A DNA stretch of 64,000 nucleotides from Uloborus diversus (GCF_026930045.1 NC_072740.1:29556384-29620383), one strand, 5' to 3'. Positions 1,193 to 62,347 are shown, counted from the first letter of the stretch. Notes: generated by a model not told the origin, from the sequence alone. Program-made: numbers and translations.

Positions 1193-1348
1193 GTTTATTG
1201 CCCAAAGATCAAGTGGAGGTCAACTCACATGTGTAGAAAATATTGATACTAAATATGGTTTGCTGGATGTTTCAAAGCCAAACAGACGTTTTCAAGTTTC
1301 TAATAAAACTGAAGAACAAACTATTTCCCCTTTGGCCAAAATACCCAA
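1193..1348 (+). CDS. NWD1: NWD1-like gene, coding exon (first seen in window; 5' boundary uncertain, alternative acceptor at 1207/1208). Encodes ...QRSSGGQLTCVENIDTKYGLLDVSKPNRRFQVSNKTEEQTISPLAKIP(K)
   Basis: ORF 1146-1352 in frame. GTAAGC donor at 1349. Ends phase 2 (AA), which joins G1872 to give K, then WHTVRIFISS in the next exon. Polypyrimidine tract upstream of the candidate acceptor. Confidence 0.55.
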
Positions 1349-1871
1349 GTAAGCATTTCTGTTATGTCTAGCTATGTTTTTCAAGGATTGTTTTGTTCTT
1401 GTATTGAAAACATAATTGTAAACCATTCATATTGCTTAAGGCTATATTCATGGATGTATTTTTTGTTGGATGTCATAGGCTCCCTTTATTTTGCATTATA
1501 AAGGGTTCCCCCTCCCTCAAACAAGACCCAAAATGTGAGCATGTTATTTTTTTGCTGCAATATTGTGCTTTAAAAGCTGTTTTTTTTATGTATGTGTTGT
1601 TTTAAATTAAAAATAAATCAATGTAATTTTTGCATATTATAAAGAAAAATAGCATCTCAAGGCAAAAGAAAAGTATGATGTAATTGTAACATAAAGACCT
1701 GGAACTGCTTGGAAATACAAAACTTTGATGTGTAGTACATCATATTAATATTTGTTACCCTATTTTAAACAGAATGTGTTTTATTGATTTACATTTGGAT
1801 CAAAAATTTCAGTATTAAAAAATCAGTTTTCACTACTGGTATTGTTTATCATGGCACATTCTACATTTTAG

Positions 1872-2048
1872 GTGGCATACTGTACGTATATTTATTTCAT
1901 CCACCTTTAAGGACATGCATTCAGAACGGGATTTATTAATAAAATTTGTTATGCCAGAACTTCAAAGAAGGGCTGCTTCTATTTTCATCCGTATAAATGA
2001 AGTTGATCTAAGATGGGGCATCAGTGAATCAGGCACTGAAAACAAACG
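1872..2048 (+). CDS. NWD1: NWD1-like exon: DUF4062-type N-terminal motif (K)WHTVRIFISSTFKDMHSERDLLIKFVMPELQRRAASIFIRINEVDLRWGISESGTENK
   Basis: ttttAG acceptor at 1870-71; GTATGT donor at 2049. The FISSTF-DM--ERD...PEL...VDLRWG motif is the DUF4062 signature found N-terminal in NWD1/NWD2-type STAND proteins. Phase continuity with flanking exons. Confidence 0.8.
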
Positions 2049-2799
2049 GTATGTATTTTACTAGGTTTTAAATGGTATAAAGTTTTGTTTTCATGATTTT
2101 TTTTGTACTAATTAGTGTTATGCTCTCCCCTCCCCTACAAAAAAGAGAAAATTTCTAACTTTAAAATATGCTTGAGTATTGCACTAAACAGGAACTCTTA
2201 ATTTTATGTTCTACAGTCCACTGTTGTTAAATGCTAACTCAAATACAAATACAAAAGTGACGACCAGCAACAGGCTCTGGGCCCAGCTAGAGGGTCACTT
2301 TGCGCCATGCTATGTGCAAAGTGGTGATTTTTCACTTTTTTTCTCTCTTTAGGTACCATAACTTTCACATTAAATTTCTAACTTTTGTTCATTTTGAAAA
2401 ATATGATTTATCTTAACTTATTTCACTTTATCGCACATTCTCCTATGTAGAGTGTTTGGTTTTCCTTTACCTTGCTGAAAGATTTCCTGAATTTTTAATT
2501 TTAAAAGTCCATTTTCGAAGTCAATTAGATTTATTAATCTGCATTCATATAATTCCTGTTATTCAGAAAGTAATATCCTTCATACTTACACTAGACACAC
2601 ATTTGAGCAGTTGAAAATAATCTGCAGCATTATTATCAGTTTTATTTTGAGTTTTCAACGTTTTTACTCAGTTGAAAAGCAGTTATTCAATACATATTTA
2701 TTTAAGTGTGGAAAATTTAAGTTAAATAGTTTTTGAAATTTATTTTAAATGAATAAATAAATAAGTTAATAAATGAAAAGTTGCAGGAAACTGCATTTT

Positions 2800-3740
2800 A
2801 GATGAATGTTTTTGTTTATAGCGAAGCTTCCAAAGCAAATGCAACTGCGCAGGTAATAATTCACATTTTTTATGAAAATCAACCCATAAACAAAATATAA
2901 CAACATAAACATAACCAAAATAAGAAACATAATTTATTGTACATTTTATGTAATGTTCAATAGTTTGCATTGAGGTAAACATCAAATTCTGTTTTTGGAA
3001 ACTTAGGCAAGTAATAATCTTGTCTATTTCCATCTTGCGAATGACCAAACATGGCGTCTGCGCGAAAAAGGCGTGATTCTAATTAGATTTTTGAATTTGT
3101 TACATAAAAGTAGAAATAAATTCAAAATCTTTAAAAAAATACGATTTAGATGAAATAGTCAGTTTTTAGCACTTTAGCCTCTAAAGCAATGAAGGTAAGA
3201 TATTCTAAGATAAATTTTTGCACTTTATAAGACACTAATTAAGAATTATCCGAAAAAAATGGCATATTTTGCATAATTTTCAACAGTTTGCATTGCAATA
3301 AACATCCAATTCCGTTTTGAAAGCGTAGGCATTTAAAGTGTCTTGCGTAGCAACATCTTGGAAATGACCAAACATGGCGACTATGCCGAAAATTAAGATA
3401 TAAATTTTTGAATTTGTTGCTAAAAAATATTTTAAAAATAAAAATCCTCATGAGGTTACATTTTAGTTGAAAAGCTTTTAGCACTTTTGCGTCCAAAGCA
3501 ATGAAGATAAGGTGAAATTTTAAATATAAAATTTTTCATTCCTCAAGAAAATTACTTTAAAAAATAAAAATAAAAGAAAACGATTTGCTGCACATTTTAA
3601 GCTATTTTCATCAGTTTGCAGTTAAATAAAACATCCAATTCTGCTTTGTTTTTGAAAACTTAGGCACTTAAGTATCCTATCTACTTCGATCTTGTGAATG
3701 ACCAAAGATGGCGACTATGTTTCTAGCTGAAATGCTGAAA
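2800..3740. repeat. Tandem satellite, unit about 320 bp, roughly 3 copies. Each unit contains the core GACCAAA[CG]ATGGCG[AT]CT.
   Basis: The blocks tttgcattg...gaccaaacatggcg... recur at about 2960, 3288 and 3613, with a partial unit from about 2800. The minus-strand ORFs 2740-3048 and 3239-3496 are read from this repeat. Confidence 0.7.
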
Positions 3741-4195
3741 GCATCCATCGCCTTTTCCGGCCAAAAAAAACGATCTATAAACGATCTTTGCAAAGTTGTA
3801 TTTATTTTTTTGTCTTTTATTTATTTATTTTTCTTTCTTTCTTTTTGTTATTTTATAAAATTGTCTGCAGGTCGCTGCGTCTCCCAGTTTCTGCTGCCGG
3901 GGACACACATAAAAGAACACAGCACGCACACCCACATTTCATTAGAGTTTATTTTCTAAAAATTCTTATGATCCCAATGAACTATCTCACCATTTTAATC
4001 GTTCTCTATCTTTAAGTATTTTAGAATGTTTATTGTGGTTCATATTTTAATGTTTTATAAAGTGTGAGATTTATTTTACATTGATCAAGCATTTGCTGAG
4101 AAATTGTTTAATCATCGAAAGCAAGTTACTATTCTTTGCTACATATGTATTGAGTCATTTTAAATGGAACTTTTTCTTCTTTTATTTTCTTTCAG

Positions 4196-4435
4196 TGCTG
4201 CAGAATTATGTTTACTCGAAGCGCAGAATTCAGATCTTTTTATTGGAATTGTTGGAGGAAGATATGGCACTCTGTATAACTTTGGTGCTCCAGATTCTCC
4301 TACTCTTGATTGGGTTACCACAGAGTGTGAATGGGAATCAGGTTTATCAATTACTGCACTAGAAATGCGTGCATTTAGCATGAAAAATCCTGAATGGAAA
4401 GCATTCTGTTATCTGAGGGATGGCTCGTTTGCTCG
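4196..4435 (+). CDS. NWD1: NWD1-like exon: (R)AAELCLLEAQNSDLFIGIVGGRYGTLYNFGAPDSPTLDWVTTECEWESGLSITALEMRAFSMKNPEWKAFCYLRDGSFA
   Basis: ORF 4164-4439. tttcAG acceptor at 4194-95; GTAATA donor at 4436. Continues DUF4062 (DLFIGI.G.RYG). Phase 2 in, phase 2 out, consistent. Confidence 0.8.
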
Positions 4436-5014: not shown

Positions 5015-5128
5015 GGGTTTGCCAACAAAGTGGAAATCTTATTTTGTTGATGAGGATGAAAATTTACTCTCAAAATTAGAAAAATTTAAATCTGTTATAA
5101 GAAAAAGTGGTGTAAAAGTATTCAATGG
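5015..5128 (+). CDS. NWD1: NWD1-like exon: (R)GLPTKWKSYFVDEDENLLSKLEKFKSVIRKSGVKVFN(G)
   Basis: ttttAG acceptor at 5013-14; GTATGT donor at 5129. Open in the required phase. Confidence 0.7.
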
Positions 5129-6479: not shown

Positions 6480-7430
6480 AATCTAATTGGGAAAGTCCAC
6501 TTATTAGCCTTGTAGCCCGCCTTTAAACCCTTTCCAAAAAATTAATGTCTTTCGTAAGATAAGGAGACCAAAACTGAACAGCATACTCCAAATTGGGTCT
6601 TACCAAACTTCTATATAAGGGCAGAAGAACTTCTTTAGATTTGTTTGAAATAGATCTATTGATAAACCCAAGCATCTTATTGGCTTTGTTGCTAGCAATG
6701 CTGCACTGTTGGCTAAACTTTAAATCCTGACTTATTAAGACCCCCAGATCAGTAACTTTGTCTGCGTGACTAATGACTGAACCTTGCAAATAATAACTTG
6801 TACACTTATTTCCATGCCCTAATTGTAGCACTTGACATTTCCCAACATTAACAGCCATATCCCATTTATCAGCCCACTCCGTAATATGATCTAGATAATC
6901 TTGCAGCTGATTTGCTTGTTCTTCATTTTCTACAGTCCCCATAACTTTGACATCATCAGCAAAACAATTCATGTTCCCAGAAATATTTTTGTGAATATCG
7001 TTCATAAAGACAATGAACAAAACAGGCCCTAACACTGATCCTTGAGGAACCCCACTTAAGACCTCACTCCAATTAGAATAATTTCCCCTTACAACTACCC
7101 TTTGTTTCCTTCCGGTCGCCAGTTTTTTACCCAAATGAAAGTTTTCCCTCCTATTCCTATATCAGCTAATTTGCTAAGTAGAGCAACATGCGGTACCTTA
7201 TCGAAAGCTTTTTGAAAATCAATGTAAACAACATCTACAGGCTTCTTATTGTCCAAAGCCATGGTAACTTTGTCATAGAAATGTAATAAATTAGTTGCAC
7301 AAGATTTACCTTTCCTGAAACTGTACTGAAAACTAGTCAATAGATTATTAGTCTCTAGAAAATTTACTATCTTAATTTTCATCAATGTTTCAAAAATTTT
7401 GCAAACCACCGAAGTTAGACTAGCCGTAAC
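6480..7430 (-). mobile_element. Non-LTR (LINE) reverse-transcriptase fragment, copy 1. Frameshifted pseudogene inside an NWD1-like intron.
   Basis: Minus ORFs 6523-7134 and 7095-7409 are in different frames. RT motifs YIDFQKAFDKVPH, FRKGKSCATNLL and NCFADDVKV (F/YxDD box). Confidence 0.75.
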
Positions 7431-7862
7431 AGCATTTGTGCCAACAACTGTAAAAGAGACAATTTTTTAACTGATTTACCTTTTTCTTTGATTTTGCCTC
7501 ACTGACAAGACGGCAAAAGATGGTACACAATTAAGGTGCATGCATGTATTGTAGGAATGTTTTTCTGAAATCATGATCATTTGAGATGAATCATTTTTAG
7601 ATATGACAAAACTTGTGTGGAGCTTCAGCATTTTAATGTTTTTTTGATTGAAATAATTTGCATGTAATTGCTAATAAAATGTTTTGGGAGTTAAAGTTTA
7701 GAATAATGACTTATGGCAGCAATTTATAATCAAATGTTTTCATGAGTAAAGAAGTCCTAAATAATGACATTTCCCCCCCATTTAATTACTTTATGTGACA
7801 TATTGTTAAACATTTCAGCTTCTAGATTTATTTATTTATTTTTATTGAAATTTCTTAAACAG

Positions 7863-7980
7863 ATATCCATGTCAGTTTGCTGGAATTCTTAAGGGTAAAC
7901 CAATCTTGTCAGGATTAGAGACGTTTGGAAGTACTGTTATAGAAGATGTATGGAATGCCCTAAAAAGAATACATGATGAG
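7863..7980 (+). CDS. NWD1: NWD1-like exon: (G)YPCQFAGILKGKPILSGLETFGSTVIEDVWNALKRIHDE
   Basis: aaacAG acceptor at 7861-62; GTATCG donor at 7981. Phase 2 in, phase 0 out. Confidence 0.7.
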
Positions 7981-8599: not shown

Positions 8600-8779
8600 A
8601 ATCCATGCTTGGATGAAGTAGCTGAAGAGGATATGAATCAAGTTGATCTTTTTGACTCACACCAGTTTTGTGTTGGAGAAAAAAATTCATGTATTGGAGA
8701 TGTTTTATCTGCTATTCAATCTGATTCTGAAATTGTTGTAATGTTTGGATCCCCAGGCTCTGGGAAAACATCAACAAGT
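8600..8779 (+). CDS. NWD1: NWD1-like exon carrying the NACHT Walker A/P-loop: NPCLDEVAEEDMNQVDLFDSHQFCVGEKNSCIGDVLSAIQSDSEIVVMFGSPGSGKTSTS
   Basis: ORF 8609-8833. GSPGSGKTS matches the Walker A consensus GxxxxGK[ST]. ttttAG acceptor at 8598-99; GTAAGT donor at 8780. Confidence 0.85.
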
Positions 8780-9752: not shown

Positions 9753-9907
9753 GTTCAGCTATTGAAAAAACTTGAAAACTATCCAATAATAAAGTATTTT
9801 ATTGGTGGGTCTCCACAATCAAAAGATCTTTCTTATATGTTACATTACATTTGCAACTCTATAGTCAAGCAATTCCCCGTTTCTGCTGTTTTTCCACAAC
9901 TAGCTAG
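9753..9907 (+). CDS. NWD1: NWD1-like exon (NACHT): VQLLKKLENYPIIKYFIGGSPQSKDLSYMLHYICNSIVKQFPVSAVFPQLA(R)
   Basis: ttttAG acceptor at 9751-52; GTAAAT donor at 9908. Phase 0 in, phase 2 out. Confidence 0.7.
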
Positions 9908-11369
9908 GTAAATAGTATTTATTGTAGCACTGTTTCAGTGTACATTCTTTTTTGTTTCAATATTTGCTGTTGTTGTTATTCTCTTGTGCCAGCTAGGATG
10001 GCAATTCGGATTGCACTGCTTCATTTTCCAACTGTCCCGTAATTTGGTGTGTTGTTCAACTTCCATAATACACACATGCTGTAAGGAGCTGTTTGCAGGG
10101 TTAATCAGCTTGAACTAATATGAAATGTTTGCAAAATTTTGACTGTCCTTGTTTGACAAAAATTCAATAAAAAGTGATTATTACTTTCAATATGAGTTAT
10201 AGCAACCTTTTATGTTCATGAACTTCCTTTCTAACAGATGAAAATTGAAAGGGTGAAAATAGGGGAATTGAACCATTGAATTATGTAACCATTGAACCTT
10301 TACCATTGAATTAGGTAAAAGTAAACTCATTTCAAAAGTCAACTTTGGACAGCAAGCAAATGAATTAGAAATTTATTCTTGCATAAATTCAGTAGCTATG
10401 TTTAAAAGAAGTAAATAAATTAATTTAAAACAAAATGATAAGATTTCCAATACATGCAGTGAATTTCATATCCATTAAACTTTTATTTCACTTTATGCAT
10501 TATTGTTTGTTACATGAAGTTGCAGAGTTAATGTCATTTAAACTATATTTTTGAAATTATATTTAAAATGATTTTTAAACAAGATAAGCATTTCATTACT
10601 TTTATTAAAAATGGAAGCCTTTTTCCAGTTTTATGGTATGTTTTTGTGTTTTGAAAATTATTCTCTTGTTGTGAGTTATGATGAATTTGTTCTTTGAACA
10701 TTGCCATTAAATTCTGTGTTGAAAAAATTAAGTGGACATATCGTCACCTTGGTGTTGTTACGCAGATTAAATGTCTTACTGTTGCTCTGAGGTGACGATA
10801 TATATTAAAATATGAAACAAGTTTGCTCAAAACTAGTTGCCAAACAAGTATACTAATAACACTGCATGACAAAAAAAAAAAAAAAAAAAAAAAACCTTTT
10901 AAAATGCTTCCAACACCATTCTTGCTAATTCTTACATAAAATTACCCCCTAAATCCAAATATGACAGTGTTTTTTTTTTTCCATCTTTGCCCTACTTTTT
11001 GGAAATGGATTGTTAGAACCCCCCAATTTGCTTTCATTTTCGAAAGTTTCATAGCTACCACCTAAATTTGGAGGGGAAAGGAGCATTATATTAACCATTA
11101 ACATTCTTCTTTGGTTCTACAGAGCTTTATAGTCCAAAAGCATGAACATTAGTAGAAACTCGGGAGACTCCCCCTCCTAAAATATTTTTAAAATAATTAG
11201 AAGTGATCTTTTTTGCTAGGGGTTTGTTTTACAATATTTCACTTATTTTTCGGTGTAAAACTACAGTATTGGACTCACTCCTATGTGCCTCAGTTCAAAA
11301 AGTATTTACAAAAAATGTTGGAAGCATTTCATGATGCATGCAAGAGTTATCCCAGATCAACAGTAGTTA

Positions 11370-11690
11370 AACTTCCTGTGTCATTTATATTTATTCAAGT
11401 TACATTCACAGATATCATTAAGATTAAAAGTGAAATTAAGAATGTTCATAATGATGCATTGATGGCTTCTTATACTTTTGGAGACAAATTGTTTATTACT
11501 ATAAAAAGAAGGGATACAAATATATAGGATGCACGTAACAAGTGATGTCACTTCACTTAAACAATTTGCTGCATCTCCTGTGTGTGAAATATTAATCTAC
11601 AATAATGTTTCTTTATGAGCATTTTAAATTTCAAGTTTAATCTTAATTATATCTGTGAATGTAACTTGAATAAATATAAATAATACAGGA
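11370..11690. mobile_element. MITE-like element with roughly 40-bp terminal inverted repeats
   Basis: atttatatttattcaagttacattcacagatatcattaagatt at 11381-11423 against aatcttaattatatctgtgaatgtaacttgaataaatataaat at about 11638-11680. Confidence 0.55.
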
Positions 11691-12000
11691 AGTTTATTCA
11701 CTGAAGATCTGCAATGCAACTTGTGTGCAACATGCGGTGTTTCAGACGTTGAAAGCAAAAGTAAAAATACTTGATGGAAAGTGGGCATTGGGCTCGTAGG
11801 AGTGAGTTAGATACACTGGGTTTACACCAAAATATAAGTGAAAAAATTGCAACACACAAGGCAAGAAAAAAGAATAATTTTTATGATTTAAAAAATATTT
11901 TAGTTTGTAATACCCCTATGAGTTCCAAATTTGCTGCTGCTGTTCATGCTTTAGGACTTGTGACTTCTCTTGCGAATCAGTAGAATTTTGATGGTTTATA

Positions 12001-13412
12001 CACTGCTCGACATTGAAAATGCAACACCAAGAAGCAGTGGTCAGAAAGTGATGAAATTTGGAAAAAAGACAGAGACAGCAAGGAATAATAAATGATCTTA
12101 ATTTCAAAATGATAGGCAGAATACAGAGCGAGAACGGTGTCGACTCATTAGGTTGTAGGACCACCGCGGACAGCGATACACGAAGAAACACGTCCAGGCA
12201 TAGAGTCAATAAGGGTGCGGATGGTGTCCAGAGGGATGACTCTTCATTCCCTTTCAACCATTTGCCACAGTTAGTCTTCTGAACGAGGCAGGGACAGAGT
12301 CTGCAAACAGCGTCCAATCACATCCCAAACATGTTCGATTGGTGACAGATCAGGAGAGTATGGTGGCCAGGGAAGCATCTGTGTGCCTTGGAGAGCATGT
12401 TGGCAGATGCGAGCACTGTGTGGTCGGGCATTATCCTGCTGAAAAATTGCATTAGGTAGCCTTGAAGGTAAGGGATTACCACCAGCTGCAGTACATTATC
12501 CAAGTATCATTGAACCGTCATAGTGCCCTGAATACAAACTAGAGGTGATATGGAATTGTACGCAATTGCGCCCCAAACATTATGCCACATTGTTGTGCGG
12601 TGGGACGTTCCACATTTACTGCTGGATTAAATCTGTCTCCACATCGACGCCACACACGTATGCGGTGACTATCACTGGATAAACAGAAGCAGGATTCATC
12701 TGAGAACACGACATTTCGCCATTCTGTCATCCACGTCGCTCTAGTCCAGCACCGTACTAAACGTTGCTGTCTATTTTGTGGGGTCAATGGCAGTCTTCTT
12801 AGTGGACGCCGTAATTGCAGACCACTTGCGACCAAATGAGGGGAAATGGTTCTGGTTGACACGGGAACATTCAGGGTATCTTGCACCTGCTGCAGAATCG
12901 AGGAAAAAGTGACTTGTGGGTCTGCTACAGCTTGTCGGTGGATGCACGCGTTCTGTCGTACTCTGGCTGCCCCTGCACCCCTCAATCTTGCCACATTTCG
13001 TTGTTCCAACCATCTATCTTCGATACAGCCAATGCACCATGCTCGCATCCATGTGGGTATGAGGTGCGATTTGACGCACAGATCAACCTCCCCTTCTCAG
13101 TCCGATCACCATACCCCTCGTAAAATCGTCTATCTGCTGGAAGTGCCTTCGTTGACGTCGGCCTGGCATTCTCTCGTGTTACACGTATCCTCCAAGACAA
13201 AAACAAAATTTCTTCGATAATTCTCCAGTCAGAAATAACGACACGAATATTGCCCATTCTGCAAGTTTCTTCCCTTATATCTTACTTCACGTGCGCCGGA
13301 GAGCTTCGCATTTCACATCATTTACATAACTCAGTGATGTACGTCTACTCTAAAATTTGCATAAATTTCTGAACACTTCTTCTTGGTGTTGCATTTTCAA
13401 TGTCGAGCAGTG
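12001..13412 (-). mobile_element. Tc1-like DNA transposon, copy 1: 1.4 kb with TIRs, TA flanks and a degraded transposase
   Basis: TIR cactgctcgacattgaaaatgcaacaccaagaag at 12001 has its reverse complement at about 13379-13412. TA at 11999-12000 and 13413-14. Minus ORFs in three frames (12318-12503, 12539-13048, 12982-13257) carry ...WRNVVFSDESCFCLSSDSHRIRVWRR... (DDE transposase) and an N-terminal HTH-like ISDWRII. Confidence 0.8.
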
Positions 13413-16400
13413 TATAATAAATCTCTCCAAATAAAAATAATAGCAATTAAACTCAAAAACCGAAAAAAAACTGGGGACCCCATTTACAAAAATTGGGACA
13501 TGATGGGTAAAAACAATGGTCATATTTAGATTTATAGAATCATCTTAAATAACAATCAGCCAAAATGACATCAGAAGCATTTGGAACGCTCTTATTTTTT
13601 GCCCCAAAGGTGCAATTGGTATTAAGCAACCTTTTGATCTAATAATATATTTTGGAGTTTACATCATAATGCAAATACAAAACAGACTTTTAGTGTCTTG
13701 TCCAAATGTATCAACCCCCAATAACAATTAAGTGCCTTGAAACTATTAATTGAAGTAACACTTCTCAGACACTATTCAATCATTTTTCTATTCAAATAGT
13801 AAATTTTACCTATTTTTAAAATAGTGTAGGAATTTAAAGCACTTGAAATTATTAATGCTGATTTTGACATCCAGGGTCTAATTGTGCTGACCTGAAACCC
13901 TGGGACATGAGAAACTTCAAATCCTTTATCATATTTTACAATAATGCTCGGCTACCAAATTTAAACATTAAAATGTAACTGCAATGTTGATCCCATAACA
14001 AGTTCTTTTCTTCTAGCAGGAGTGGGCAGCAGATCAATCATGATTTTCTGATCCCCCTAATTTTTTCTGTTTAATCTGCATAAGTTTGTGGTCTGTTTGA
14101 CAATTTTACTCTACAAAGGTCTCTGTACGCAGCTACATGAAATTATTTGTGAATACAGCAAAAAAAGAAACTCGGAGCTAAGATTTGTATTTGAAATTCA
14201 TGCATGCAGTAAAATAGAAAATTCTGCCTCCATACTATTTTGACTTCCTTTTACAAAGAAGGAAGTATTGTATTCGCGAAAAAATTTTCTCTCAAAAATC
14301 AGCCTTAATTTCCATTTTTCTCACCCCCGAATGAATGTTGAGTTTTTTTTTTCGACCTGACCATACGTGGATATATATGTAGGAACCTACAGACACCCGA
14401 AATGTAAATTTTGACTACCCCTGAGTTAATTACAATGAATTTTCTCGTGACATCCGTATGTACGTATGTATTTGCGTATGTGTGTATGTATCTCGCATAA
14501 CTCAAAAACGGTATGTCCTAGAAAGTTGAAATTTAGTACGTATACTCCTAGTGGGGCCTAGTTGTGCACCTTCCCTTTTGGTTGCATTTGAATGTTCCTA
14601 AAAGAGTCTTTTGCCCCTTTTTGGTAGAAATCATTGTTAATTTCGATGTAAACTCAAGTGGTGTTATAAGTTGACGTACGCTTGGCAATATATCGCCAGT
14701 ATTTTGGTCGCCAAGTTTCGTTGCCAACTGTTTGACAACTTTGGCGGTTTTAATTTTTTTTTTTAATTTTAAATCTGATTTCAATTTGGCCACTGTTGGT
14801 GATATTTAGAGAGTAAACAATTGAATCACATTAAAATTGCCAATCATGGGGAAATGACATTAAGTTGAAGTAAAAGGAAGTCATGTGATGCACACATCAG
14901 CTCATTTTTTTCTCTTTTGCTATTGCATAGTTCATTGTGTGCCCCATGATCATTCTACAGTCAGTATTGTCAGTTCAGCCGGTGTTGAATTGCATAAGTA
15001 TTACTACTTCCTCATAGTTTTGTTCATTTGTTATCAACTCACTATGTGTATCATTAAAATTTTTATTGTTTCCTTTTCTAATCATTTTCCCAAAATCTCC
15101 ATATTTTAAATGAGTAAATGATATATGCCGAAACTTATTTTCATGAGAATTGAAATCTTGAATCTTTTTTTTTTTAATACCTAATGATAGATGAGTAATA
15201 GTGTTGTTTGATTTGATATCAGTAGTTATAGTCAAGAAAGCTAGCTTGGAAAAATGTTTTTCTCTTTGCTGCAATTATCAAACTGTCCTTTAAATAGTGA
15301 TTTATGAATTAAAAACTTGCTGATCTATTAGCCTAGCAAAATGGGTTTAAAAAACGCATTTCAAAATCAGTTTGAATCACTATATTTTCAATGAAAGCCA
15401 ACTGACAAAACAAACACATTACAAACAAGAAAGGCTCAAAAGTAGATTGTAACAACTTTCCACATATAAAATTCATCTTAATGACAGACAAGTTAGCTGC
15501 CTCAATAGTTTTGCGATACATTACTGAAAATATGGCACTTTTAATTCAGAAAAAAAAAAGCTGCTTAATGAGCACTCAATGCAAAAGCCTTATATACAGA
15601 GAGCAGCAAAAATAATAACATGTAGCAGTCATATTTGTCTAAATAATTTTCAATAAGAAGACTACAATGGATGAAATGCTTTCCAAATCAGGATATTTAG
15701 AAAATAAAACTACAGATTGGTTAAAAAAAGATGAAATGATTGTATAAACGCACTGCTTTTAATTTCAAATTTAGCACAACTTCAGATTCACTGGATTGCA
15801 AAAAACTTTCTTTTTTGCTCCACCTTCTATTTGTTATGAAAAAAAGTTTGACCTGACCCTCAATTTAGAAAGTTTCTGTACAGCTACTAAATTTTCATGC
15901 AATGATAAGGTCTTGCATTCAGCATTGCAAAAATTCACTCAGCAACATTTATTCTAATAAATTTAAACAAGTGAATCATTGCCCCTGACTATCTTTTGGG
16001 CAAGACTGTTTGTTGAGCCTTTTGACTCTGAAACTGTAATCTGAAAAGTAATGAACTAAAAGTGTGTAATTATTTTAATAAATATTTTTTTCAAATTTTT
16101 GATTGTTTTTAAACTTATCATACTTAAATTTTGCTTACATTTCATGTACACAAAATGAAACATGTAAGTAAGTTTCAAAATTAAGATTTTTATCATCCAT
16201 CAAAGCTATTTTCTCCAGAATTGGAATTAAGGAAAAAATTAAGGCTGATGTTTTAGAGCTAAAGGTCATCTCTATATAGTTTTAAGCTGTAATTTTCATT
16301 GGAATATCAATGAACTAAAACTGCTAGAAATTACATTAGAAACAAAATTCATACATGCATTAGATCCTTTTTACTGTTAGTCATACAAGATACACTTCAA

Positions 16401-23403: not shown

Positions 23404-23417
23404 CACTGTAAAAAAAA

Positions 23418-46719: not shown

Positions 46720-47200
46720 AATGACGTACGACGATATCGTGAAAATAACCAATCCTATATCGCTGCGTCATCGGGTCACGATATAAAATGATGTCTAATC
46801 CGACAGAGCGTGTGCCATTGACAAAATCGTCACGCGTCATTGTAACGATAACGCAAGCGTCATTGTGCAGTTATCGTTTGCGATATCTGCCTATATCGTT
46901 TACGCGTCATTGTAACGATAACGTAAGCGTCATCACGTCGCGATTAGAGAAGTGCGTGAAATTTCAAATATTTGAATTTTTTTTATTAAAACTGAATTAT
47001 TTTTGATTTATTCCATTTTATTCATAAAATAACTGTACAGTTTTGAAATTTGACTATTATAAGCAATTTTGTAAAATGCCGATATCGTGCCGATGACGAG
47101 CTATACAGTAGAAACGATATACGATATCGGGTAGATGAAACGATATACGGCAATGACGTACAGATGACGCTAAGATATCGGGTGCTACTAGGGTATATCT
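46720..47200. mobile_element. CpG-rich cgatatcg-motif repeat family, copy 2
   Basis: acgtacgacgatatcgtgaaaataaccaatcctatatcgctgcgtcatcgggtcacgatataaaatgatgtctaatccgacagagcgtgtgccattg... matches 40150-40300. It continues with inverted cgatatcg-rich sequence to about 47200. Confidence 0.65.
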
Positions 47201-49100: not shown

Positions 49101-49210
49101 ACACAGGTGTTTTACCCTCATTGGAACAGAGTTTGAAAAAGCTGTAAGAAAGTTCTACATGAATAAAAACTATGACACTTATTCAGATACATTACACTCT
49201 GTTTTAGCTG
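49101..49210 (+). CDS. NWD1: NWD1-like exon: (R)HRCFTLIGTEFEKAVRKFYMNKNYDTYSDTLHSVLA(A)
   Basis: ttgcAG acceptor at 49099-100; GTATGT donor at 49211. Phase consistent. Confidence 0.65.
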
Positions 49211-51441: not shown

Positions 51442-51748
51442 CCTATTATAAAACTAACTGTGATCCTCAAAATAATGGAAGTTGGAGTGGAAGTTCAAGA
51501 TCTGCTCTACGAAATTTGCTGCATCATTTATATAATGGATTTTGCTACCATGAACTTGCTGAGTACCTGTGTTGTCACAAATTCTTAGAGGCTGTTTTTC
51601 GTTTGAATGCTGCTGACAGTATACTTGGATATTATTCATCCTTGCTCTCTGAGCTGAGACAAATTAATAACAAAACTAAAGGAATAGATGCTGGTAGATT
51701 ATTGCAATTTTCTGAATTTGTTTCCAGAAATATTCATATATTTCATCA
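51442..51748 (+). CDS. NWD1: NWD1-like exon (helical linker): (A)YYKTNCDPQNNGSWSGSSRSALRNLLHHLYNGFCYHELAEYLCCHKFLEAVFRLNAADSILGYYSSLLSELRQINNKTKGIDAGRLLQFSEFVSRNIHIFH(Q)
   Basis: ORF 51411-51815. tttttAG acceptor at 51440-41; GTATGT donor at 51749. Confidence 0.75.
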
Positions 51749-53279: not shown

Positions 53280-53433
53280 GTACCCCCAGTTAGTCGTCCA
53301 GCAAGCTATGAATGAGCCGAAAAATTCTGCTGTTTTACTCCAACAAAATAGTAGTACTACAAGTACTTTTGAATGTCTTTCACGTTCTTCTTTGGTTGAT
53401 TTTCGACTTGCGACTTTTAGTGGCTTTTTAAAG
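53280..53433 (+). CDS. NWD1: NWD1-like exon: (Q)YPQLVVQQAMNEPKNSAVLLQQNSSTTSTFECLSRSSLVDFRLATFSGFLK
   Basis: ORF 53254-53565. atatAG acceptor at 53278-79; GTAATT donor at 53434. Confidence 0.7.
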
Positions 53434-54504
53434 GTAATTTTCCTACCTCTGATTTTTTTAAAAGTTTTCCGGCTTGAAAAAATTCTCTTTAAAGTTTTGT
53501 CTGTTACGTTATACTTTTTAAACCCAATACCTTTTTTAAACTTAAGAGAGCAGACACACACATAGGGAGTAAGAAATACCAGTTTTTCCTTGTTTTTGAA
53601 AGTTGAAGTACAATATTAGGGAATTTTCAAGAGATAAAAATTTCAAACAGCAAGATTTTATTGCAGTTAAATAGTTTGATATGTTTTGAAAACATGTTAA
53701 AATTCAAGTTTTTTTAGTTCTATTGCTGTTGTGCAATCTTGGGGATAGTGAAGCGAACCCAAGCAGATATGACACCATCCCTAATTGAGTCGCTTCAAGA
53801 CCGTAATCTAAGTGCCAAAAGTGTTATTATAATGCCTAAATATTGAAACATTATTGTAAAATATTATATAAAAAAATATTTAATTGTAGTTATGCAGGTG
53901 GACACATTGTCAGTTTTACCACCAAGCTCCCCTTTCCCCTACCTTACTCTTTTCAATCTGTACTATTCCAATTCTGAATAGGGTGCCCCCACTGCCCCTA
54001 CCCTACTTTCGGACTTTCCTGACGTACCCTCTCACCTGGATAGTTTTTCCTACTAATTGTGAATGCTTTATAGAAAAAATGAATTATAAGTTATTGAGAT
54101 AGTTTGACTATTCACAATTATTTGGTGGTTGACCCAGAATATTTATTAATTAACTACACTAGTCAGTTACTAAAAAATATGCTTTTCCTGAATAAAAGTT
54201 CTATTTTATTTTATCTGAAGTAAAATGTTTATAATTTATTTGAGAAAAAAAAGCTTTCTAAAACCAACAAAATTTCATTACTTGACCATTTTGGTTAATT
54301 TCTAGCACTGATAGCATTTTCGACAACTAGTAGTTGACTACCCCTTAACCCCAACAAAAACGATTAGTTATGAAGCGTTTTTTTGCTTATTTACTTAAAA
54401 CAAAAATGGATGATCTACATATCTCAATAAATAAGCCTGTAGAATTAAATATAATCTCAAGCAGTTCGATAAAGCATTTTATCTCATAACACTTCTCCCC
54501 AGTA

Positions 54505-55273
54505 CAGTAAAACCTGTAAAGTTGACCACCTTTGTAAGTTGACCACCTGTCTATGTTGACCGCTTTTGTCTGGAACGGAATTAGTCCTATCTTATATAAT
54601 GAAGGAAAACCTCTGTAACTTGACCACCTCTCTATCTTGACCACTAATGAACACCAAGTTTGGTTTGGAGTATTGTAAAAAACCCTTTGTAAGTTTACCA
54701 CTTGGTTTATTTTTCAAAATTTTATTTAGCAAATTATTTTTTTTATTATTATTTTTTTTATAGCTTTCCAAGAATATTTTTGATGTCAGACCAGCATTTT
54801 ACCAACTAAATGAAACAGCAGCATAACTAAACCTCCTTTTGAGTTTGAGTAGATCATCATGGGGTTATAAATGTATATGAGAAAAAAATAAAGCGAAAAA
54901 TTTGTAATTTTTGATTAGCTATGAATTTTTAGGAACTATTAATATCAAATGAGTAACTTTTCATAAACAATAAGACTTTTTTTTTGATCAATTTACTGAA
55001 ATTTTAAATTTGCATGGCACATTATATGTCATTCTGGGAAAATAATCTCTAAAAATATTTAAATAACATTTTTAATTATTGTTTCAAAGTAATGTTAAGC
55101 AATGAAAGTGAGTTGAACGGAAAGAGTAAGTGTCAATTAGTCAAAAAATGAATACATGGTGCAAGAAACGACAAAAAAAGAAAAATCATTACCCCCTTTA
55201 TAAGTTGACCACCTGTCTAAGTTGACCACCAAAGTACTGCACCGCAAGTGGTCAACATACACAGGTTTCACTG
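54505..55273. mobile_element. TA-flanked MITE (769 bp) with termini CAGTAAAACCTGT...ACAGGTTTCACTG and subterminal GTTGACCACC repeats
   Basis: TIRs at both ends. TA at 54503-04 and 55274-75. Five or more gttgaccacc/cttgaccacc copies near both ends. Confidence 0.7.
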
Positions 55274-55789: not shown

Positions 55790-55885
55790 AATATTATATC
55801 TATTGGTTGGGAAAATAATCAACCATATGCAGTACTTGGAAGTGAAGATGGATATTTGAAAGTATTGGATATATCATCCAGAAAG
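55790..55885 (+). CDS. NWD1: NWD1-like exon, WD40 repeat segment: NIISIGWENNQPYAVLGSEDGYLKVLDISSRK
   Basis: tttcAG acceptor at 55788-89; GTAATT donor at 55886. 96 nt, phase 0 in and out. WD40-like residues (SEDG.LKVLD). Confidence 0.7.
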
Positions 55886-57416: not shown

Positions 57417-57423
<7 letters not shown>

Positions 57424-57898: not shown

Positions 57899-58023
57899 AT
57901 GCTTAGGACAATCAAAGGTCATTCATCTGCAATTTCTTTTGTCTGCTTTGCTGGGAAAAATCGTATCTGTCTTTCATCTGCTGATACTACACTAAGCATA
58001 TGGAATGTTGAAAATTTTAGCAG
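57899..58023 (+). CDS. NWD1: NWD1-like exon, WD40 repeat: MLRTIKGHSSAISFVCFAGKNRICLSSADTTLSIWNVENFS(R)
   Basis: tatAG acceptor at 57897-98; GTATTC donor at 58024. KGH...S..D.TL.IWN matches the WD40 consensus. Confidence 0.75.
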
Positions 58024-59365
58024 GTATTCTTTTTTTTAAATCCATAACATTACTTTAAAAATTTGATTGTTTGAAATTGTTACTATTATTTTGTTATATC
58101 TATATAATTTTACTCAGTAGCAGCATTGACAGATTGCTATCATCTGAAATATATCATGATTAAATATGCTTATGTAAGTCAAAATATTGCACCCTATAAA
58201 ATAAAATCAACCACCAAATTTACCTTACTTAAACTTCAAAACACCTTAAACTCATCTTAAATCCACTGATTCATTTCTAAGTAAATGATTATTTTAAAAA
58301 AAATATATAATGGAAGAAATAAAAAAAATTAATTGCTTTAGACATCATGAGCACAAGTGATGAGACCTAAAATTAAAAAAATCTGTTGTGATAGTGATTC
58401 TCTCTTTTGATTTTGACTTCCCAGTTGTCAAGTAACACCCTAAGCTAGTAGTGTTAGGTTATTTTTCTAATATTTTATGTGACTCAAATCAAAATCAGTA
58501 GAAATAAAAACTTTTGCTTCCCTGTTCTTATGGTATAACCAAGTTAGAAGTACATACACAGTCAAATTCGACCAATGCGAAATTGTTTAACATGAAGTAT
58601 TGCTTTACATAAATTACTTGTTTGGTCCTGTGAGTTAACTACTCTTAACTCACTTAATAATTTATCACAGGGGTCCCCAATCCTATGCTCGCTGACACCA
58701 CAGAGCCCACCAAGTCTTTAACATGTGCCCTCCATGTGCAATCTGGACAAAAAAAATAATAATTTTTAATAAAATGTCATGCAAAAGTTTTTTCACTTTT
58801 AATGATTAACTATCCAAAGGTAGAAGTTGCATGCAATGCAAATAAAAGCACACATTTCAGAACTTGTTCCTAAAAAACAGAAGAGTTGGAGGAGGTATAG
58901 AAATTTTGTATATTAAGGGTAACATAGTCCTAAAATCCATTATATGATGTGAGAATTTCTGAAAAATAATTTCAAGAAACATATTAGAAAATAGAAATGT
59001 ATTCAAATTTTATACACTTGTGCAAATTATATTTTTTAACTGTAAGTGTGACATAGAATCAAAGTACATATCACGACTTATACTACCATGGGAAGATAAA
59101 GTGGTATTTGGAATCTTTATCTATCTTTTCTCAGAAACTTCATTTCCCTCTTAAATTAAGATTGACTGAAGGGACAACCTTCCTTTCAACCTCCCCCTCC
59201 ATCCTTCTATTAAATTATATGACAATTTCCTCCAACAAAAGGCAGTGAGGATTGAGAAAGGTTTATTTAGTGTTGTGTTCCTGTGTGTGGAGGAGGGGCA
59301 ACATTATCAATAAACCCCCCTTTACTTATATCTTTTTATGCGTTAATAATTGAAACTTGACAATA

Positions 59366-60916
59366 CACTGATGTGCAAAAATTAAGGACGAAGTCGAAAA
59401 ATTAGCATATCAGCTGAACGAAGAGGCAGAGTGGACAGAAAGAACAATCAGGAGATAAAGTAAGGTGATGTACGGTAGCACATGCGCAGATATGCAGGCA
59501 GACGTAATGGGGGAGTGTCTGAGTAGTATAAAGCATGTTGTCGGTGTAAGATCAGTATTTCTGACAAAGAGATTGCACACCGTATAGCAGTTAAAATCAC
59601 ACCGAGTTGCTGCCTCAGCGAGAAATGGCAAATAACCAATCTGTTAGATGACATCTGGATGCTTTTATCCGAGGTCGAATCATTGGGAAGTTGGAGGAAA
59701 GCCGCAGTGTGACAAGTGTGGCTGCAGAGTTCGGAATTGTTCACAGCATCCTTTCACAACTTTGGAGACAATTTCAAACTACAGGAACAGCTATCCGGGG
59801 GTTCAGTAATGGTCGTCCACGAGGAACCACACCCGCCGATGACCGGTATATTTTCTTACAGGCCAGAAGAAACAGGCGGCAGACAGCGGGAGAAATTGCT
59901 AGACACACGACGCAGGCGACTGAACGACCGATATCACGTTTTACCGTAGCCAGAAGACTGCACGGTGGTGGTCTGTTTGCACGACGCCTTATACGGTGTG
60001 TACCTCTAACGCCTGCCCACCGGAGAAGGCGTTCTCTGTGGTGCCGGGAACACCGGAATTGGAGAGACAATGAATGGGGACGAGTACTCTTTACAGATGA
60101 GAGCAGATTCAGTCTGAGTAGCGATTCTCATCGCATACTCATCTGGAGAGAGCTGGGAAGCCACAATCATCCCTCAAACATCACTGAAAGGGACAGGTAT
60201 GGAGGTCGCGATGTTCTTGTTTAGGGAGGCATCATACTTTGTACTCGTACAGACCTTCACATCTTCGATGCAGGTTCAGTCAACGGGACCCGTTATTGTA
60301 ACGAGATTCTTCTTCCATATGTGCGTCTTTTTAGAGGAGCTATGGGTCCGCAGTTCCTTTTCATGGATGACAATGCACCATGTCATCGCACAGTAGCTGC
60401 CGAACAACTCTTAGAGAGTGAGGCTATTGAACGTATGGATTGACCGGCACGATCTCCGGATCTCAATCCCATCGAGCATGTATGGGATTTTCTAGGCAGA
60501 CGCTTGGCAGCACGTACCTTACCACCAGTAACGATTCGGGAGCTTCGATTGGTGCTGCAAGACGAATGGGCAGCAATGCCTCAACAACTCATTGACACCC
60601 TCATTCTTAGCATGGGCAGACGCTGTGAAACCTGCCTAGCAGTCAGGGGAGATCATATCACCAACTAAAGACCGGATGTTTCTTGCTGGACACCCATCAC
60701 AGGGATGTTTCGGCCTTCAGTCGGATTGCGCTCCATGCTACTTTTTCAATAAAGCTTCTTTTTATCCCTCTGATTTCTCTTTTAGTAAGTGTTGCTTACA
60801 TTACACATGTCCTTACGTGTTGGGGATCTTATGGTATTAAATGTGTTGATTTGGAAAGCTTTTGTACAAAGTTATATTGAAAAAACCGTCTCGTCCTTAA
60901 TTTTTGCACACCAGTG
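59366..60916 (+). mobile_element. Tc1-like DNA transposon, copy 2 (1551 bp), with TIRs, TA flanks and a frameshifted transposase
   Basis: TIR cactgatgtgcaaaaattaaggacga at 59366, with reverse complement tcgtccttaatttttgcacaccagtg ending at 60916. TA at 59364-65 and 60917-18. ORF 59691-60224 has ...RLHGGGLFARRLIRCVPLTPAHRRRRSLWCREHRNWRDNEWGRVLFTDESRFSLSSD. A shifted frame gives MDDNAPCH, then ...[23 protein letters not shown]. Confidence 0.85.
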
Positions 60917-61326
60917 TATATATAGTTAGAAATGTGAAAAAGGCCATGTAAAGGGCCTATTTTTTAATCTGCTGGGAGAGTGGGAATTCTGAATACCCAA
61001 TCTTTCGATATTTAAACTGATAATTTCCAATGCTGCTTGACAGCAGCAATTGAATACTGATATTTTCTCCACTGTTACTGTTTTGTATTAAGGGGCTCTC
61101 CACAATTGATGTCACAGGGGTGGGGACATGTTAAGGAGGGAGTGGCCTTCATGTATCATCAAATTTTTTTATTAGAATACTTTTATGAAAAACAATGTGA
61201 TATATGACAAGGGATGGAAGTTTAAAATGTTGAAAAAAAAGTGTAACAACATTTATGGACAGTCCCTTAACTAAAGATTAACTCTGAGTTTCTTTTGACA
61301 AATTTTTATTGAAAATGTTATTTTAG

Positions 61327-61476
61327 AATTGCTGTCTTAAAAGGACACCGGGATATTGTTACTTGTTGTTGTGCTGATCCTGATGGAAGTATTTTATTTT
61401 CATCTGGATGGGATAATTCAATTCGCTTGTGGAGTTTGCATGATGGAAGACCCATTTCTGTTTTCGATGATTTTAA
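61327..61476 (+). CDS. NWD1: NWD1-like exon, WD40 repeat: (R)IAVLKGHRDIVTCCCADPDGSILFSSGWDNSIRLWSLHDGRPISVFDDF(K)
   Basis: ttttAG acceptor at 61325-26; GTAAGT donor at 61477. Classic WD40 (LKGH...V.......DG..L.SGS.D..IRLW). Confidence 0.8.
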
Positions 61477-61639
61477 GTAAGTAATTATGAAATCATTGAT
61501 GAAATGTGATAACTGTGTTTCTTCTTTGGGCGTTATTTTCAATGTTCCTGAGTGCCTGAGTGTAATTTATTCAGTTACCTGCATACAATTTTTTAAAAAT
61601 TTGATAGTAATGTACATAGTCTTTTAACTGTATTTTTAT

Positions 61640-62150
61640 GCATATTATTCATGGCGGTGTACAATCTGCAGGTCTTAAAATTGTCCTAGAGAAAAAAAAA
61701 TGTCTTTTTATAATCTGCCCCATCTTTTCATCTTCAAAATAATACGATGTAAAAAAGCAAAGTTTTGACTTTAACATACAATTTTAGCAACTAAATTAAA
61801 AACCTGAAGGAGTAATTACTTTTAAGGTGGTATCAAAATTAATCTGAAAAATTATGAATTCTTGAAATCGTGAATGTGGTACGCCAATTATTTTCAGACA
61901 AAGAGTCGAGACAAAGAAGCAAATGATCTAATCTTGTGCAAATGCAGGCTTCTTTCTTGACTGTATGGTTGTTTATTTTACATAGCCTGAAACCTGTAAG
62001 AGGAACATTCAAGCTATTTAAAATAAACAACCCTAGAGGCAGTGTAGCAGTCTCCATTGGTGAATCCTGCTGTAAATTGAGGTTTGATGCATTCATGTTG
62101 AGAAAAAAAAGCACAAATAATCCGCAGCAGTGTGTAATCCGCACCTCATT
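61640..62150. mobile_element. Second copy, truncated at both ends, of the MITE that is nested in the LINE fragment at 34571-35198
   Basis: aatctgcaggtcttaaaattgtcctagagaaaaaaaaatgtctttttataatctgcc...gtacgccaatta...gtcgagacaaagaagcaaatgatctaatcttgtgcaaatg... aligns to 34600-35170. Confidence 0.65.
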
Positions 62151-62238
62151 AATTTTTTAAACAGGTAACCCATGGATAATGCACTGAAAAGTACTGTATT
62201 TCAGCATTTTAATCCATTTTTCTCATTTTCATTTTTAG

Positions 62239-62347
62239 GTGTCCTGTAAATTGTGTTGCTCATCATCCATATAAGCAAAATATTTCTAGTGGTCTTTGGA
62301 ATGGGTATATAGAGATATGGGATACAGTATCAATGACAAAAAAACTT
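62239..62347 (+). CDS. NWD1: NWD1-like exon, WD40 segment: (K)CPVNCVAHHPYKQNISSGLWNGYIEIWDTVSMTKKL. The gene continues beyond this exon.
   Basis: ttttAG acceptor at 62237-38; GTAAGC donor at 62348. Phase 2 in, phase 0 out. Confidence 0.7.

Follow-up and report, generated by a model that had tools for sequence, protein, structure and literature searches.

A probable TEP1 orthologue in the spider Uloborus diversus: exons and domains of its central 978 residues

TEP1 (telomerase protein component 1), a well-known STAND protein associated with vaults and with telomerase, is among the founding members behind the name of the NACHT family. NWD1 and NWD2 belong to the same STAND superfamily and have a DUF4062-NACHT-helical-WD40 architecture but begin at DUF4062, without the TROVE and vWA regions. 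DUF4062 (NIR) domains also occur in the STAND defence systems of bacteria and archaea (Avs with NIR effectors, Swarozyc, Vulcan/Vesta, and Evangelion), where the TIR-like NADase domain, with its catalytic Glu, is often fused to a STAND NTPase. APAF-1, which comprises an N-terminal effector, a STAND NTPase, a helical domain, and WD40 propellers, is the accepted model for the oligomerisation switch that is likely in proteins of this kind. In preprints from 2026, the DUF4062 domain of TEP1 is shown to be a TIR-like NADase; a fragment of human TEP1 (residues 886-1113) is active, with E1008 as the catalytic residue and three active-site arginines (R908, R954, and R976), and the R908-to-Ala mutant has lower activity (10.64898/2026.05.01.722283). 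As reported in the same work, the DUF4062-NACHT layout is common to NWD1, NWD2, NPHP3, and TEP1, and purified full-length human NWD1 and NWD2 show no NADase activity in vitro (10.64898/2026.05.01.722283).

The window, a stretch of 64,000 nucleotides from Uloborus diversus (GCF_026930045.1 NC_072740.1:29556384-29620383), very probably encodes, as judged from its sequence relationships, 978 residues from the centre of a TEP1 orthologue. It is an ordinary orthologue, an additional member of the known TEP1 family, rather than an unusual NWD1-like gene. With human TEP1 and the TEP1-like proteins of arthropods, echinoderms, and molluscs it shares the order of DUF4062/NIR domain, P-loop NTPase, helical region, and WD40 repeats, probably with the TEP1 linker in front, and it differs in that the window covers no more than 978 residues from the middle of an expected 2,000-2,600, the TROVE/vWA region and the distal propellers lying outside the observed part. 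In contrast to NWD1 and NWD2, the window protein has a probable TEP1-type exon that precedes DUF4062. At the sequence level, prokaryotic DUF4062-NACHT(-WD40) proteins are clearly related (e.g. a protein from a Methanoperedens MAG, 334 bits) and have the same fusion to a STAND NTPase, but they are encoded by intron-less anti-phage genes, whereas the window gene comes from an animal, belongs to the TEP1 lineage, and is rich in introns; PADLOC 2023 gave no match to it. APAF-1 differs in having a CARD instead of DUF4062 and an NB-ARC instead of a NACHT-type NTPase, and is not orthologous.

The gene model was rebuilt independently from tblastn HSPs and a phase-keeping search for GT/AG sites. In what follows, P0019 denotes the TEP1-like protein of Stegodyphus (XP_035227346.1, 2,010 residues) and P0001 a fragment of the Araneus orthologue. 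The model comprises 18 exons between 1193 and 62347, the same number, the same ends, and the same coding length of ~2.9 kb as in the first-pass annotation.

Exon 1, 1193-1348, + strand: residues 1-51, entered in phase 2; probable tail of the region between TROVE/vWA and DUF4062, and linker; AG acceptor, GTAAGC donor
Exon 2, 1872-2048, + strand: residues 52-110; DUF4062/NIR TIR-like domain begins (RIFISSTFKDMHSERDLL, VDLRWGI)
Exon 3, 4196-4435, + strand: residues 111-190; DUF4062/NIR core
Exon 4, 5015-5128, + strand: residues 191-228; NIR-domain extension of TEP1 type, matching P0001 residues 264-304 and P0019 residues 616-660
Exon 5, 7863-7980, + strand: residues 229-268; last part of the segment that corresponds to the human crystal construct (TEP1 886-1113)
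Exon 6, 8600-8779, + strand: residues 269-328; start of the NTPase domain, Walker A GSPGSGKTS at 8747-8773
Exon 7, 9753-9907, + strand: residues 329-379; NTPase domain
Exon 8, 17202-17346, + strand: residues 380-428; Walker B LILLIDGLD at 17266-17292
Exon 9, 32466-32750, + strand: residues 429-523; C-terminal part of the NTPase, tblastn E=5e-26 (P0019) and 1e-31 (P0006)
Exon 10, 35653-35785, + strand: residues 524-567; winged-helix region, weak HTH_NWD1 match (17 bits)
Exon 11, 37510-37690, + strand: residues 568-627; winged-helix/helical region
Exon 12, 49101-49210, + strand: residues 628-664; helical region
Exon 13, 51442-51748, + strand: residues 665-766; APAF1_C-type helical domain, tblastn E=1e-22 to P0019
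Exon 14, 53280-53433, + strand: residues 767-818; helical domain ends, first beta-propeller begins
Exon 15, 55790-55885, + strand: residues 819-850; WD40 blade
Exon 16, 57899-58023, + strand: residues 851-891; WD40 blade (KGHSSAISF...LSIWNVEN)
Exon 17, 61327-61476, + strand: residues 892-941; WD40 blade (KGHRDIVTC...IRLWSL), E=3e-17
Exon 18, 62239-62347, + strand: residues 942-978; WD40 blade, GTAAGC donor in phase 0

The exons total 2,935 nt, or 978 codons, and contain no stop. AG is present at 18/18 acceptors and GT at 18/18 donors, so that all 36 dinucleotides are canonical, and the phases join unbroken across the 18 exons, as had been described. Residues 427-1416 of P0019 are colinear with 18/18 exons, no query residue is left unplaced between exons, and single exons give E-values as low as 5e-26 with this protein; against the spliced peptide it aligns in one BLASTP HSP that covers residues 1-978 with 52% identity. 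Exon 9 is the most conserved of the 18. The boundaries of exon 4 are the sole AG/GT pair that leaves the frame open, and the GTAATT donor of exon 14 is supported because the P0019 alignment runs through to 53433. The gene model is well beyond chance.

Position 1193 lies directly after an AG acceptor and 62347 directly before a GTAAGC donor. The gene extends past the window at the 3' end, as had been proposed: exon 18 ends at a donor, and the WD40 blades are unfinished. Additional exons were looked for in 62348-64000 and none was found; the part downstream of the window would, by comparison with the relatives, supply about 600-830 residues more of WD40 propellers. The earlier view of the model as incomplete was correct for the downstream side but missed the upstream one, where exon 1 enters in phase 2 after an AG and the relatives are longer. 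Because exon 1 appears to correspond to the pre-DUF4062 linker of TEP1 and is entered in phase 2, the gene extends upstream of the window too, and relatives have about 430-800 extra residues there, TROVE included. Nothing recognisable was found in 1-1192, where a TROVE-like exon was looked for, and neither TROVE nor vWA is present within the window; the relatives suggest that the TROVE/vWA exons lie farther upstream.

The encoded order is predicted to run from the tail of the linker through the TIR-like DUF4062 ("NIR") domain, a P-loop NTPase of NACHT type, and a winged-helix and APAF1_C-type helical module to WD40 blades, of which approximately the first four appear to be encoded within the window. 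An order of DUF4062, P-loop NTPase, helical domain, and WD40 in a large, intron-rich STAND NTPase gene agrees with the first-pass reading, and the peptide motifs quoted then were all recovered on the + strand: RIFISSTF (1885-1908), SERDLL (1921-1938), VDLRWGI (2002-2022), DLFIGIVGGRYG (4233-4268), GSPGSGKT (8747-8770), and LILLIDGLD (17266-17292). The DUF4062 motifs, which had been placed in the first two coding exons, are actually in exons 2 and 3, and exon 1 (1193-1348) is also coding. In the Pfam scan that had been suggested for DUF4062, NACHT, and WD40, the spliced peptide scored above the cut-off for DUF4062 (PF13271, 52 bits versus 24.7) and gave 83 bits in 3 stretches for WD40 (PF00400), but NACHT (PF05729) gave 20.5 bits, below its cut-off of 26.7, with profile positions 2-164 of 167 aligned and Walker A (GxxxxGK[ST]) and Walker B (hhhhDGxD) present. 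NPHP3_N, another P-loop NTPase model, gave 29.3 bits (cut-off 24.8), and APAF1_C gave 28 bits (cut-off 22.8) over residues 659-786. Multiple propeller families match residues 812-974; Beta-prop_TEP1_2nd reaches 45 bits, well under its cut-off of 89, since no more than the first blades are in the window.

Relatives were collected by an exhaustive HMMER search with P0001, the best matches to which are proteins of 2,000-2,900 residues. P0019, P0020, and P0022 contain TROVE (186-366 bits) together with DUF4062, WD40, Beta-prop_TEP1_2nd, and Beta-prop_TEP1_C, and proteins named "telomerase protein component 1-like" in their sources come from Stegodyphus (spider), Tachypleus (horseshoe crab), Lytechinus (sea urchin), and Mizuhopecten (scallop). 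The DUF4062-to-helical core (residues 52-804) gives 822, 669, and 495 bits with the top TROVE-positive proteins; its nine best matches are all (9/9) TROVE-positive, those with a source name being TEP1-like, and among full-length proteins lacking TROVE the top score is 334 bits. In a neighbour-joining distance tree, drawn without labelled NWD1 or NWD2 from vertebrates, the window protein is sister to P0019 within a clade of 30 terminals, 25 of them TROVE-positive. Human "Telomerase protein component 1" (PDB 11gz_A) aligns with residues 53-266 at E=1e-53, with 42% identity over 211 aligned residues. This match spans the whole 216-residue TIR construct, the extended TIR-like domain of TEP1 type (human 886-1113), and the alignment is nearly gapless; therefore the TEP1-specific inserts are present.

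The label of NWD1-like given to the gene at first pass has to be replaced by that of TEP1 orthologue. Because NWD1 shares the DUF4062-NACHT layout with TEP1, the guess fell in the right superfamily, and a DUF4062-NACHT-WD40 gene without TROVE, either of NWD1/NWD2 type or from an invertebrate expansion, would encode a protein that starts at or just before DUF4062. Such a reading is consistent with the order DUF4062-NACHT-helical(-WD40), which is found in NWD1, NWD2, and NPHP3 as well as in TEP1, with the many detectable relatives that begin at DUF4062 without TROVE, with the lack of a visible TROVE in the window, and with a weak match to HTH_NWD1. We consider it very unlikely, however, as the HTH_NWD1 (PF25469) score of 17.3 bits is under the cut-off of 27, the human TEP1 match extends across the TIR construct, the nine top matches all carry TROVE, the tree places the window protein inside the TEP1 clade, and coding exon 1, with its AG acceptor and phase 2 entry, appears to be homologous to the pre-DUF4062 segment of TROVE-bearing proteins only. 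Exon 1 aligns to this segment in P0001, P0019, P0020, P0021, and P0022 with E-values of 1e-8 to 1e-3 (tblastn with P0001 residues 75-127, E=1e-7), and in phmmer every full-length protein that it matched is TROVE-positive, the match lying just before DUF4062. The 51-residue exon 1 peptide alone gave no match to Pfam, including DUF5920 (PF19334). It is likewise very improbable that exon 1 is joined to a TROVE-less 5' end, which would make the gene a lineage-specific, TEP1-derived, NLR-like NADase; in that case the NADase would be uncoupled from vault or telomerase RNA binding, and the protein would be a free-standing immune STAND sensor of arachnids with a TIR-like, NAD+-depleting effector.

As a TEP1 orthologue, the window protein can be compared with the human active site through its alignment to 11gz_A. 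The catalytic E1008 corresponds to E167, in the SITALEM sequence of exon 3 (4362-4364), and R976 to R133, in GGRYG (4260-4262, exon 3). R954 corresponds to R111, the codon of which is split by the exon 2/3 junction (2047-2048 and 4196), whereas R908 is replaced by K65 (exon 2), so that one active-site Arg is a Lys in U. diversus. The catalytic Glu and both Walker A and Walker B are thus kept in this TEP1; this conservation, the gene structure, the orthology, and the domain content are shown by the sequence comparisons, and expression, enzymatic activity, and vault association are predicted. If, as an orthologue, the protein works like human TEP1, its TROVE module, which presumably lies upstream, would tether it to vault RNA or to telomerase RNA within vault particles. 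WD40 repeats and NTPase together may form a switch of the APAF-1 kind, in which nucleotide controls oligomerisation, and oligomerisation would activate the TIR-like domain, which would then cleave NAD+ (and NADP+) by hydrolysis to ADP-ribose and nicotinamide via the conserved E167.

Introns that are long and contain a small number of dead LINE and Tc1/mariner elements, as found here, are normal for spider genes. Detectable mobile DNA makes up about 9% of the intron DNA and consists of non-LTR (LINE-type) reverse transcriptase (RT) fragments and Tc1/mariner copies:

6526-7466, - strand, intron 4: frameshifted non-LTR-type RT fragment (Pfam RVT_1)
34239-35269, intron 9: RT copy of the same family (Pfam RVT_1)
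11996-13417, - strand, intron 7: dead Tc1/mariner (HTH_Tnp_Tc3_2 42 bits, DDE_3 27 bits)
59363-60919, + strand, intron 16: dead Tc1/mariner (HTH_Tnp_Tc3_2 55 bits, DDE_3 tail)

The two RT copies score 57 and 45 bits with RVT_1 and share 92-94% identity. The intron 7 element has terminal inverted repeats of 65 bp that are 92% matched, and its ORF is broken; that in intron 16 has terminal inverted repeats of 29 nt that are 97% complementary, and stops interrupt its transposase frame. Pfam detected no LTR, Helitron, hAT, or piggyBac domain in the introns, so the description of every major transposon class as nested there reduces to these LINE-type and Tc1/mariner remnants. Nor is the intron burden extreme by the standards of the host's lineage, as had been claimed: the introns have a mean length of 3.4 kb and a median of 2.1 kb, and the mean is short beside that of the velvet spider, in which introns average 8,058 bp across the genome (PMC4273655). 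That the locus is a TEP1 copy in decay or without function, whether as a unitary pseudogene or as a leftover duplicate from the arachnopulmonate whole-genome duplication, might be suggested by the dead transposons built up in the introns, by the active-site change to K65, and by an identity of only 50-54% to other spider TEP1 proteins, but is extremely unlikely given 978 codons free of stops and frameshifts, canonical splice dinucleotides at 36/36 positions, retention of the catalytic Glu, of 2/3 Arg, and of both Walker motifs, and exons in which no base overlaps repeated DNA. The low identity reflects the rate of change in the family, not decay, because the Araneus and Stegodyphus TEP1 proteins are equally divergent (54-59%).

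The 18 exons of the gene that lie in the window were rebuilt independently of the first-pass annotation by tblastn with spider homologues, chaining of colinear HSPs and a frame-keeping search for AG/GT boundaries. All lie on the + strand, and the rebuilt model (1193–62347) has the same start, end, exon count and coding length as the earlier one:

Exons 1–6, + strand: 1193–1348, 1872–2048, 4196–4435, 5015–5128, 7863–7980, 8600–8779
Exons 7–12, + strand: 9753–9907, 17202–17346, 32466–32750, 35653–35785, 37510–37690, 49101–49210
Exons 13–18, + strand: 51442–51748, 53280–53433, 55790–55885, 57899–58023, 61327–61476, 62239–62347

All acceptors are AG and all donors GT (mostly GTAAG or GTATG), and the 2,935 nt of coding sequence in the window translate without a stop into 978 residues. 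The 2,010-aa TEP1-like protein of Stegodyphus (P0019), which played no part in model building, gives an independent validation. Its residues 427–1416 align in order to 18/18 exons with zero unaligned query residues between exons, and BLASTP against the window protein gives one HSP that spans 1–978 at 52% identity; such agreement cannot be a product of chance. The window is AT-rich (32% GC) and depleted in CpG (observed/expected 0.53), consistent with an animal genome.

The spliced peptide has the architecture proposed earlier (DUF4062, NTPase and WD40), and the peptide motifs quoted for it are all present on the + strand in their described places. In Pfam searches, DUF4062 is found at residues 57–144 (52 bits against a cut-off of 24.7), a helical APAF1_C domain at 659–786 (28 bits) and WD40 repeats at 812–974 (83 bits). 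The P-loop NTPase (residues 308–477), with intact Walker A (GSPGSGKT) and Walker B (LILLIDGLD) motifs, passes the cut-off with the NPHP3_N model at 29 bits, whereas the NACHT model reaches only 20.5 bits, under its cut-off of 26.7, yet matches nearly end to end. The profile check proposed for the peptide thus holds for DUF4062 and WD40, but for NACHT only by way of this other P-loop model.

The same architecture had been labeled NWD1-like, and here the two readings diverge. The nearest proteins in the database are fragments from spiders, automatically named "Telomerase protein component 1." Exon 1 (1193–1348), which lies 5′ of DUF4062 and enters in phase 2 after AG, is homologous to the segment that precedes DUF4062 in an Araneus fragment (P0001) and in a barnacle protein (P0007), the N termini of which match PF19334/DUF5920; the exon 1 peptide alone gave no DUF5920 match in Pfam. 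All full-length proteins matched by exon 1 are TROVE-positive. The sole solved structure that matches the non-WD40 part is 11gz_A, the human "Telomerase protein component 1" (residues 53–266, E=1e-53). Both the exon 1 homology and this structural match point away from NWD1.

An exhaustive HMMER search of representatives, in which P0001 served as proxy query for the window protein, returned two tiers. The top tier comprises proteins of 2,000–2,900 aa, matched at ∼730–1200, that carry TROVE (186–366 bits) and TEP1-specific propeller models and include sources named "telomerase protein component 1-like" from Stegodyphus, Tachypleus, Lytechinus and Mizuhopecten. The weaker tier, without these models, comprises proteins of ∼1,200–1,800 aa that begin right at DUF4062 and includes an amoebozoan transcript and a protein from a Candidatus Methanoperedens MAG. 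When the core of the window protein (residues 52–804, without exon 1 and WD40) was scored against all 168 collected proteins, the best nine were all TROVE-positive, at 822, 669, 495 bits and downward, as compared with 334 bits for the best full-length TROVE-less protein. A neighbor-joining tree of the core places the window protein as sister to P0019; the clade that holds both has 30 terminals, 25 of them TROVE-positive, and its other four members are short gene models. The NWD1/NWD2 alternative was judged by the HTH_NWD1 Pfam model and by TROVE co-occurrence, as substitutes for labeled vertebrate sequences. The TROVE-positive top matches, the tree position, the exon 1 matches and 11gz_A identify the gene, at the level of sequence, as a TEP1 orthologue, and this name replaces the NWD1-like label. 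When the C-terminal half was the query of a second word-indexed search, the only homologues returned were the two spider fragments already known.

The Methanoperedens protein (P0076, MCX9011172.1) is archaeal, 1,407 aa long and built as DUF4062-NACHT-APAF1_C-WD40. Its score of 334 bits against the core is on a level with those of many animal TEP1s, which fits the prokaryote-eukaryote link drawn in the 2026 DUF4062 papers.

Three 2026 preprints show DUF4062 to be a TIR-like NADase. Human TEP1 hydrolyzes NAD+ and NADP+ to ADP-ribose (or its phosphate) and nicotinamide, whereas NWD1, NWD2 and NPHP3 do not; residues 886–1113 suffice for the activity, E1008 is catalytic, R908, R954 and R976 lie around the active site, and TEP1 is active inside reconstituted vaults (Osinski et al., 10.64898/2026.05.01.722283). 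The same conclusion on the human NADase was reached independently by Le Mouellic et al. (10.64898/2026.09.04.749371), and the 2026 work relates the TEP1 DUF4062 domain to bacterial anti-phage effectors. Scanned against PADLOC 2023, the non-WD40 core had no match. With the numbering offset of 11gz_A set by how the four named residues are spaced, the human positions map to the window as follows:

1909–1911: codon of K65, at the position of human R908
2047–2048 and 4196: codon of R111, at the position of human R954, split by the exon 2/3 junction
4260–4262: codon of R133, at the position of human R976
4362–4364: codon of E167, at the position of the catalytic human E1008

The alignment between 11gz_A and the window protein covers 211 residues almost without gaps, and the TEP1-specific inserts are therefore present. 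Orthology predicts that the protein would act as an NTP-dependent oligomerizing switch of the APAF-1 type, the N-proximal TIR-like domain of which would deplete NAD+. The protein may be expressed, active and associated with vaults. With its catalytic Glu and NTPase motifs retained, this arachnid orthologue adds one more data point for an ancient activity conserved in animals. The value added by the locus is limited to this residue conservation in an arachnid and to the exon map; it is otherwise ordinary and answers no open question.

Judged by its relatives, the protein should have ∼430–800 residues (TROVE/vWA) encoded upstream of the window, and ∼600–830 residues (further WD40) downstream. 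The gene had been taken to run on past the 3′ end, which is right, but it is truncated at the 5′ window end as well, exon 1 being in phase 2. Low-stringency tblastn of the window edges (1–1192 and 62348–64000) with the flanking residues of P0019, P0001 and the full-length TROVE-positive relative P0020 gave only noise, so that neither edge showed a further exon. Identities over the compared regions are 53–54% between the window protein and Araneus, 50–51% between the window protein and Stegodyphus, 54–59% between Araneus and Stegodyphus, and 69% between Araneus and Trichonephila; full-length comparison of the window protein gives 36% with a horseshoe crab and 33% with a sea urchin. The host is most likely a spider that belongs to neither Araneidae nor Eresidae, or else a closely related arachnid. 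No protein at least 90% identical to the window protein was present in a collection of 5.8 billion sequences. Spider annotations of TEP1 are split into short models or partial (P0001 and P0002 in Araneus ventricosus, P0006 in Trichonephila, and P0019, labeled "partial," in Stegodyphus), presumably as a result of long introns, and the exon map of the window offers a clean guide for merging and annotating them.

The 17 introns total 58.2 kb and average 3.4 kb (median 2.1 kb), the three largest being 15.1, 11.4 and 7.3 kb; the mean exon is 163 bp. In the velvet spider, the mean intron is 8,058 bp and the mean exon 230 bp, in a genome of 33.6% GC and 54% repeats (Sanggaard et al. 2014, PMC4273655). 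Set against that mean, the introns of this gene are unremarkable for the lineage, or even compact, and the "extreme" intron burden of the first-pass annotation was overstated; the intron and transposon content is typical for spider genomes. The recognizable transposon remnants are the following:

6526–7466, − strand, intron 4: frameshifted non-LTR-type RT fragment
34239–35269, intron 9: second copy of this fragment, 92–94% identical to the first
11996–13417, intron 7: dead Tc1/mariner element with 65-bp TIRs (11996–12059 and 13353–13417, 92% matched)
12542–13096 and 12274–12495, − strand: HTH_Tnp_Tc3_2 and DDE_3 transposase pieces of the intron 7 element
59363–60919, intron 16: dead Tc1/mariner element with 29-nt TIRs, 97% complementary
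17954–18241: transposase tail, seen by eye only, with nothing found there by Pfam
62440–63980, 3′ of exon 18 and beyond the span annotated earlier: third TIR element, with 225-bp inverted arms, 80% matched

The transposase frame of the intron 16 element (59652–60665, + strand) is broken by stop codons. Pfam searches of 116 intronic open segments from both strands (10 searched first and 106 pooled, the latter each of at least 66 aa) detected RVT_1, HTH_Tnp_Tc3_2 and DDE_3 only. Domains of LTR elements (gag/pol/integrase), Helitron, hAT or piggyBac were absent from the matches, and no host gene was found nested in these segments. "Every major transposon class" is not supported; two classes are shown, non-LTR-type RT and Tc1/mariner. 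Recognizable elements make up ∼5.2 kb (9% of intron DNA, at the protein level), and ∼8.1 kb of the window (∼13%), none of it in exons, is repeated within the window by self-comparison, both figures being lower bounds obtained without a spider repeat library. Neither Rfam, at its gathering thresholds, nor ARAGORN detected an RNA gene in the window.

The RT copy in intron 9 is interrupted by ∼570 bp (34574–35147) that resemble 61631–62152 in intron 17 at 69–72% identity, which suggests nested insertions. The third TIR element encloses a DDE-like fragment (63122–63346, − strand, "FSDEKKFNLDGPDG") with no significant Pfam match. Intron 11 contains direct repeats (40174–40493 and 46721–46933) that are 83% identical, 6.5 kb apart and contain an 81-bp tandem unit; their reading as an LTR pair was rejected, since the interval has no retroelement (gag/pol) domains. 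A 44-bp tandem array of 9 copies (23418–23818) adjoins a 183-bp inverted pair (22647–22829 and 23222–23403, 86% matched), and the long − strand "ORFs" of this region (22647–23819) are simply translations of this tandem repeat. Imperfect palindromes at 11177–11903 (727 bp, 67%, intron 7) and 29452–29805 (354 bp, 71%, intron 8) may be foldback or MITE-like elements. A family of short motifs recurs in introns 8 and 14 (30691–30981, + strand; 54390–54713, − strand; 54525–54561; 55191–55227), with translations such as "...RQVIIIDSIVIHRFYC" and "...DRWSTYKGGQLYRFYC," and is probably an unclassified short interspersed repeat.
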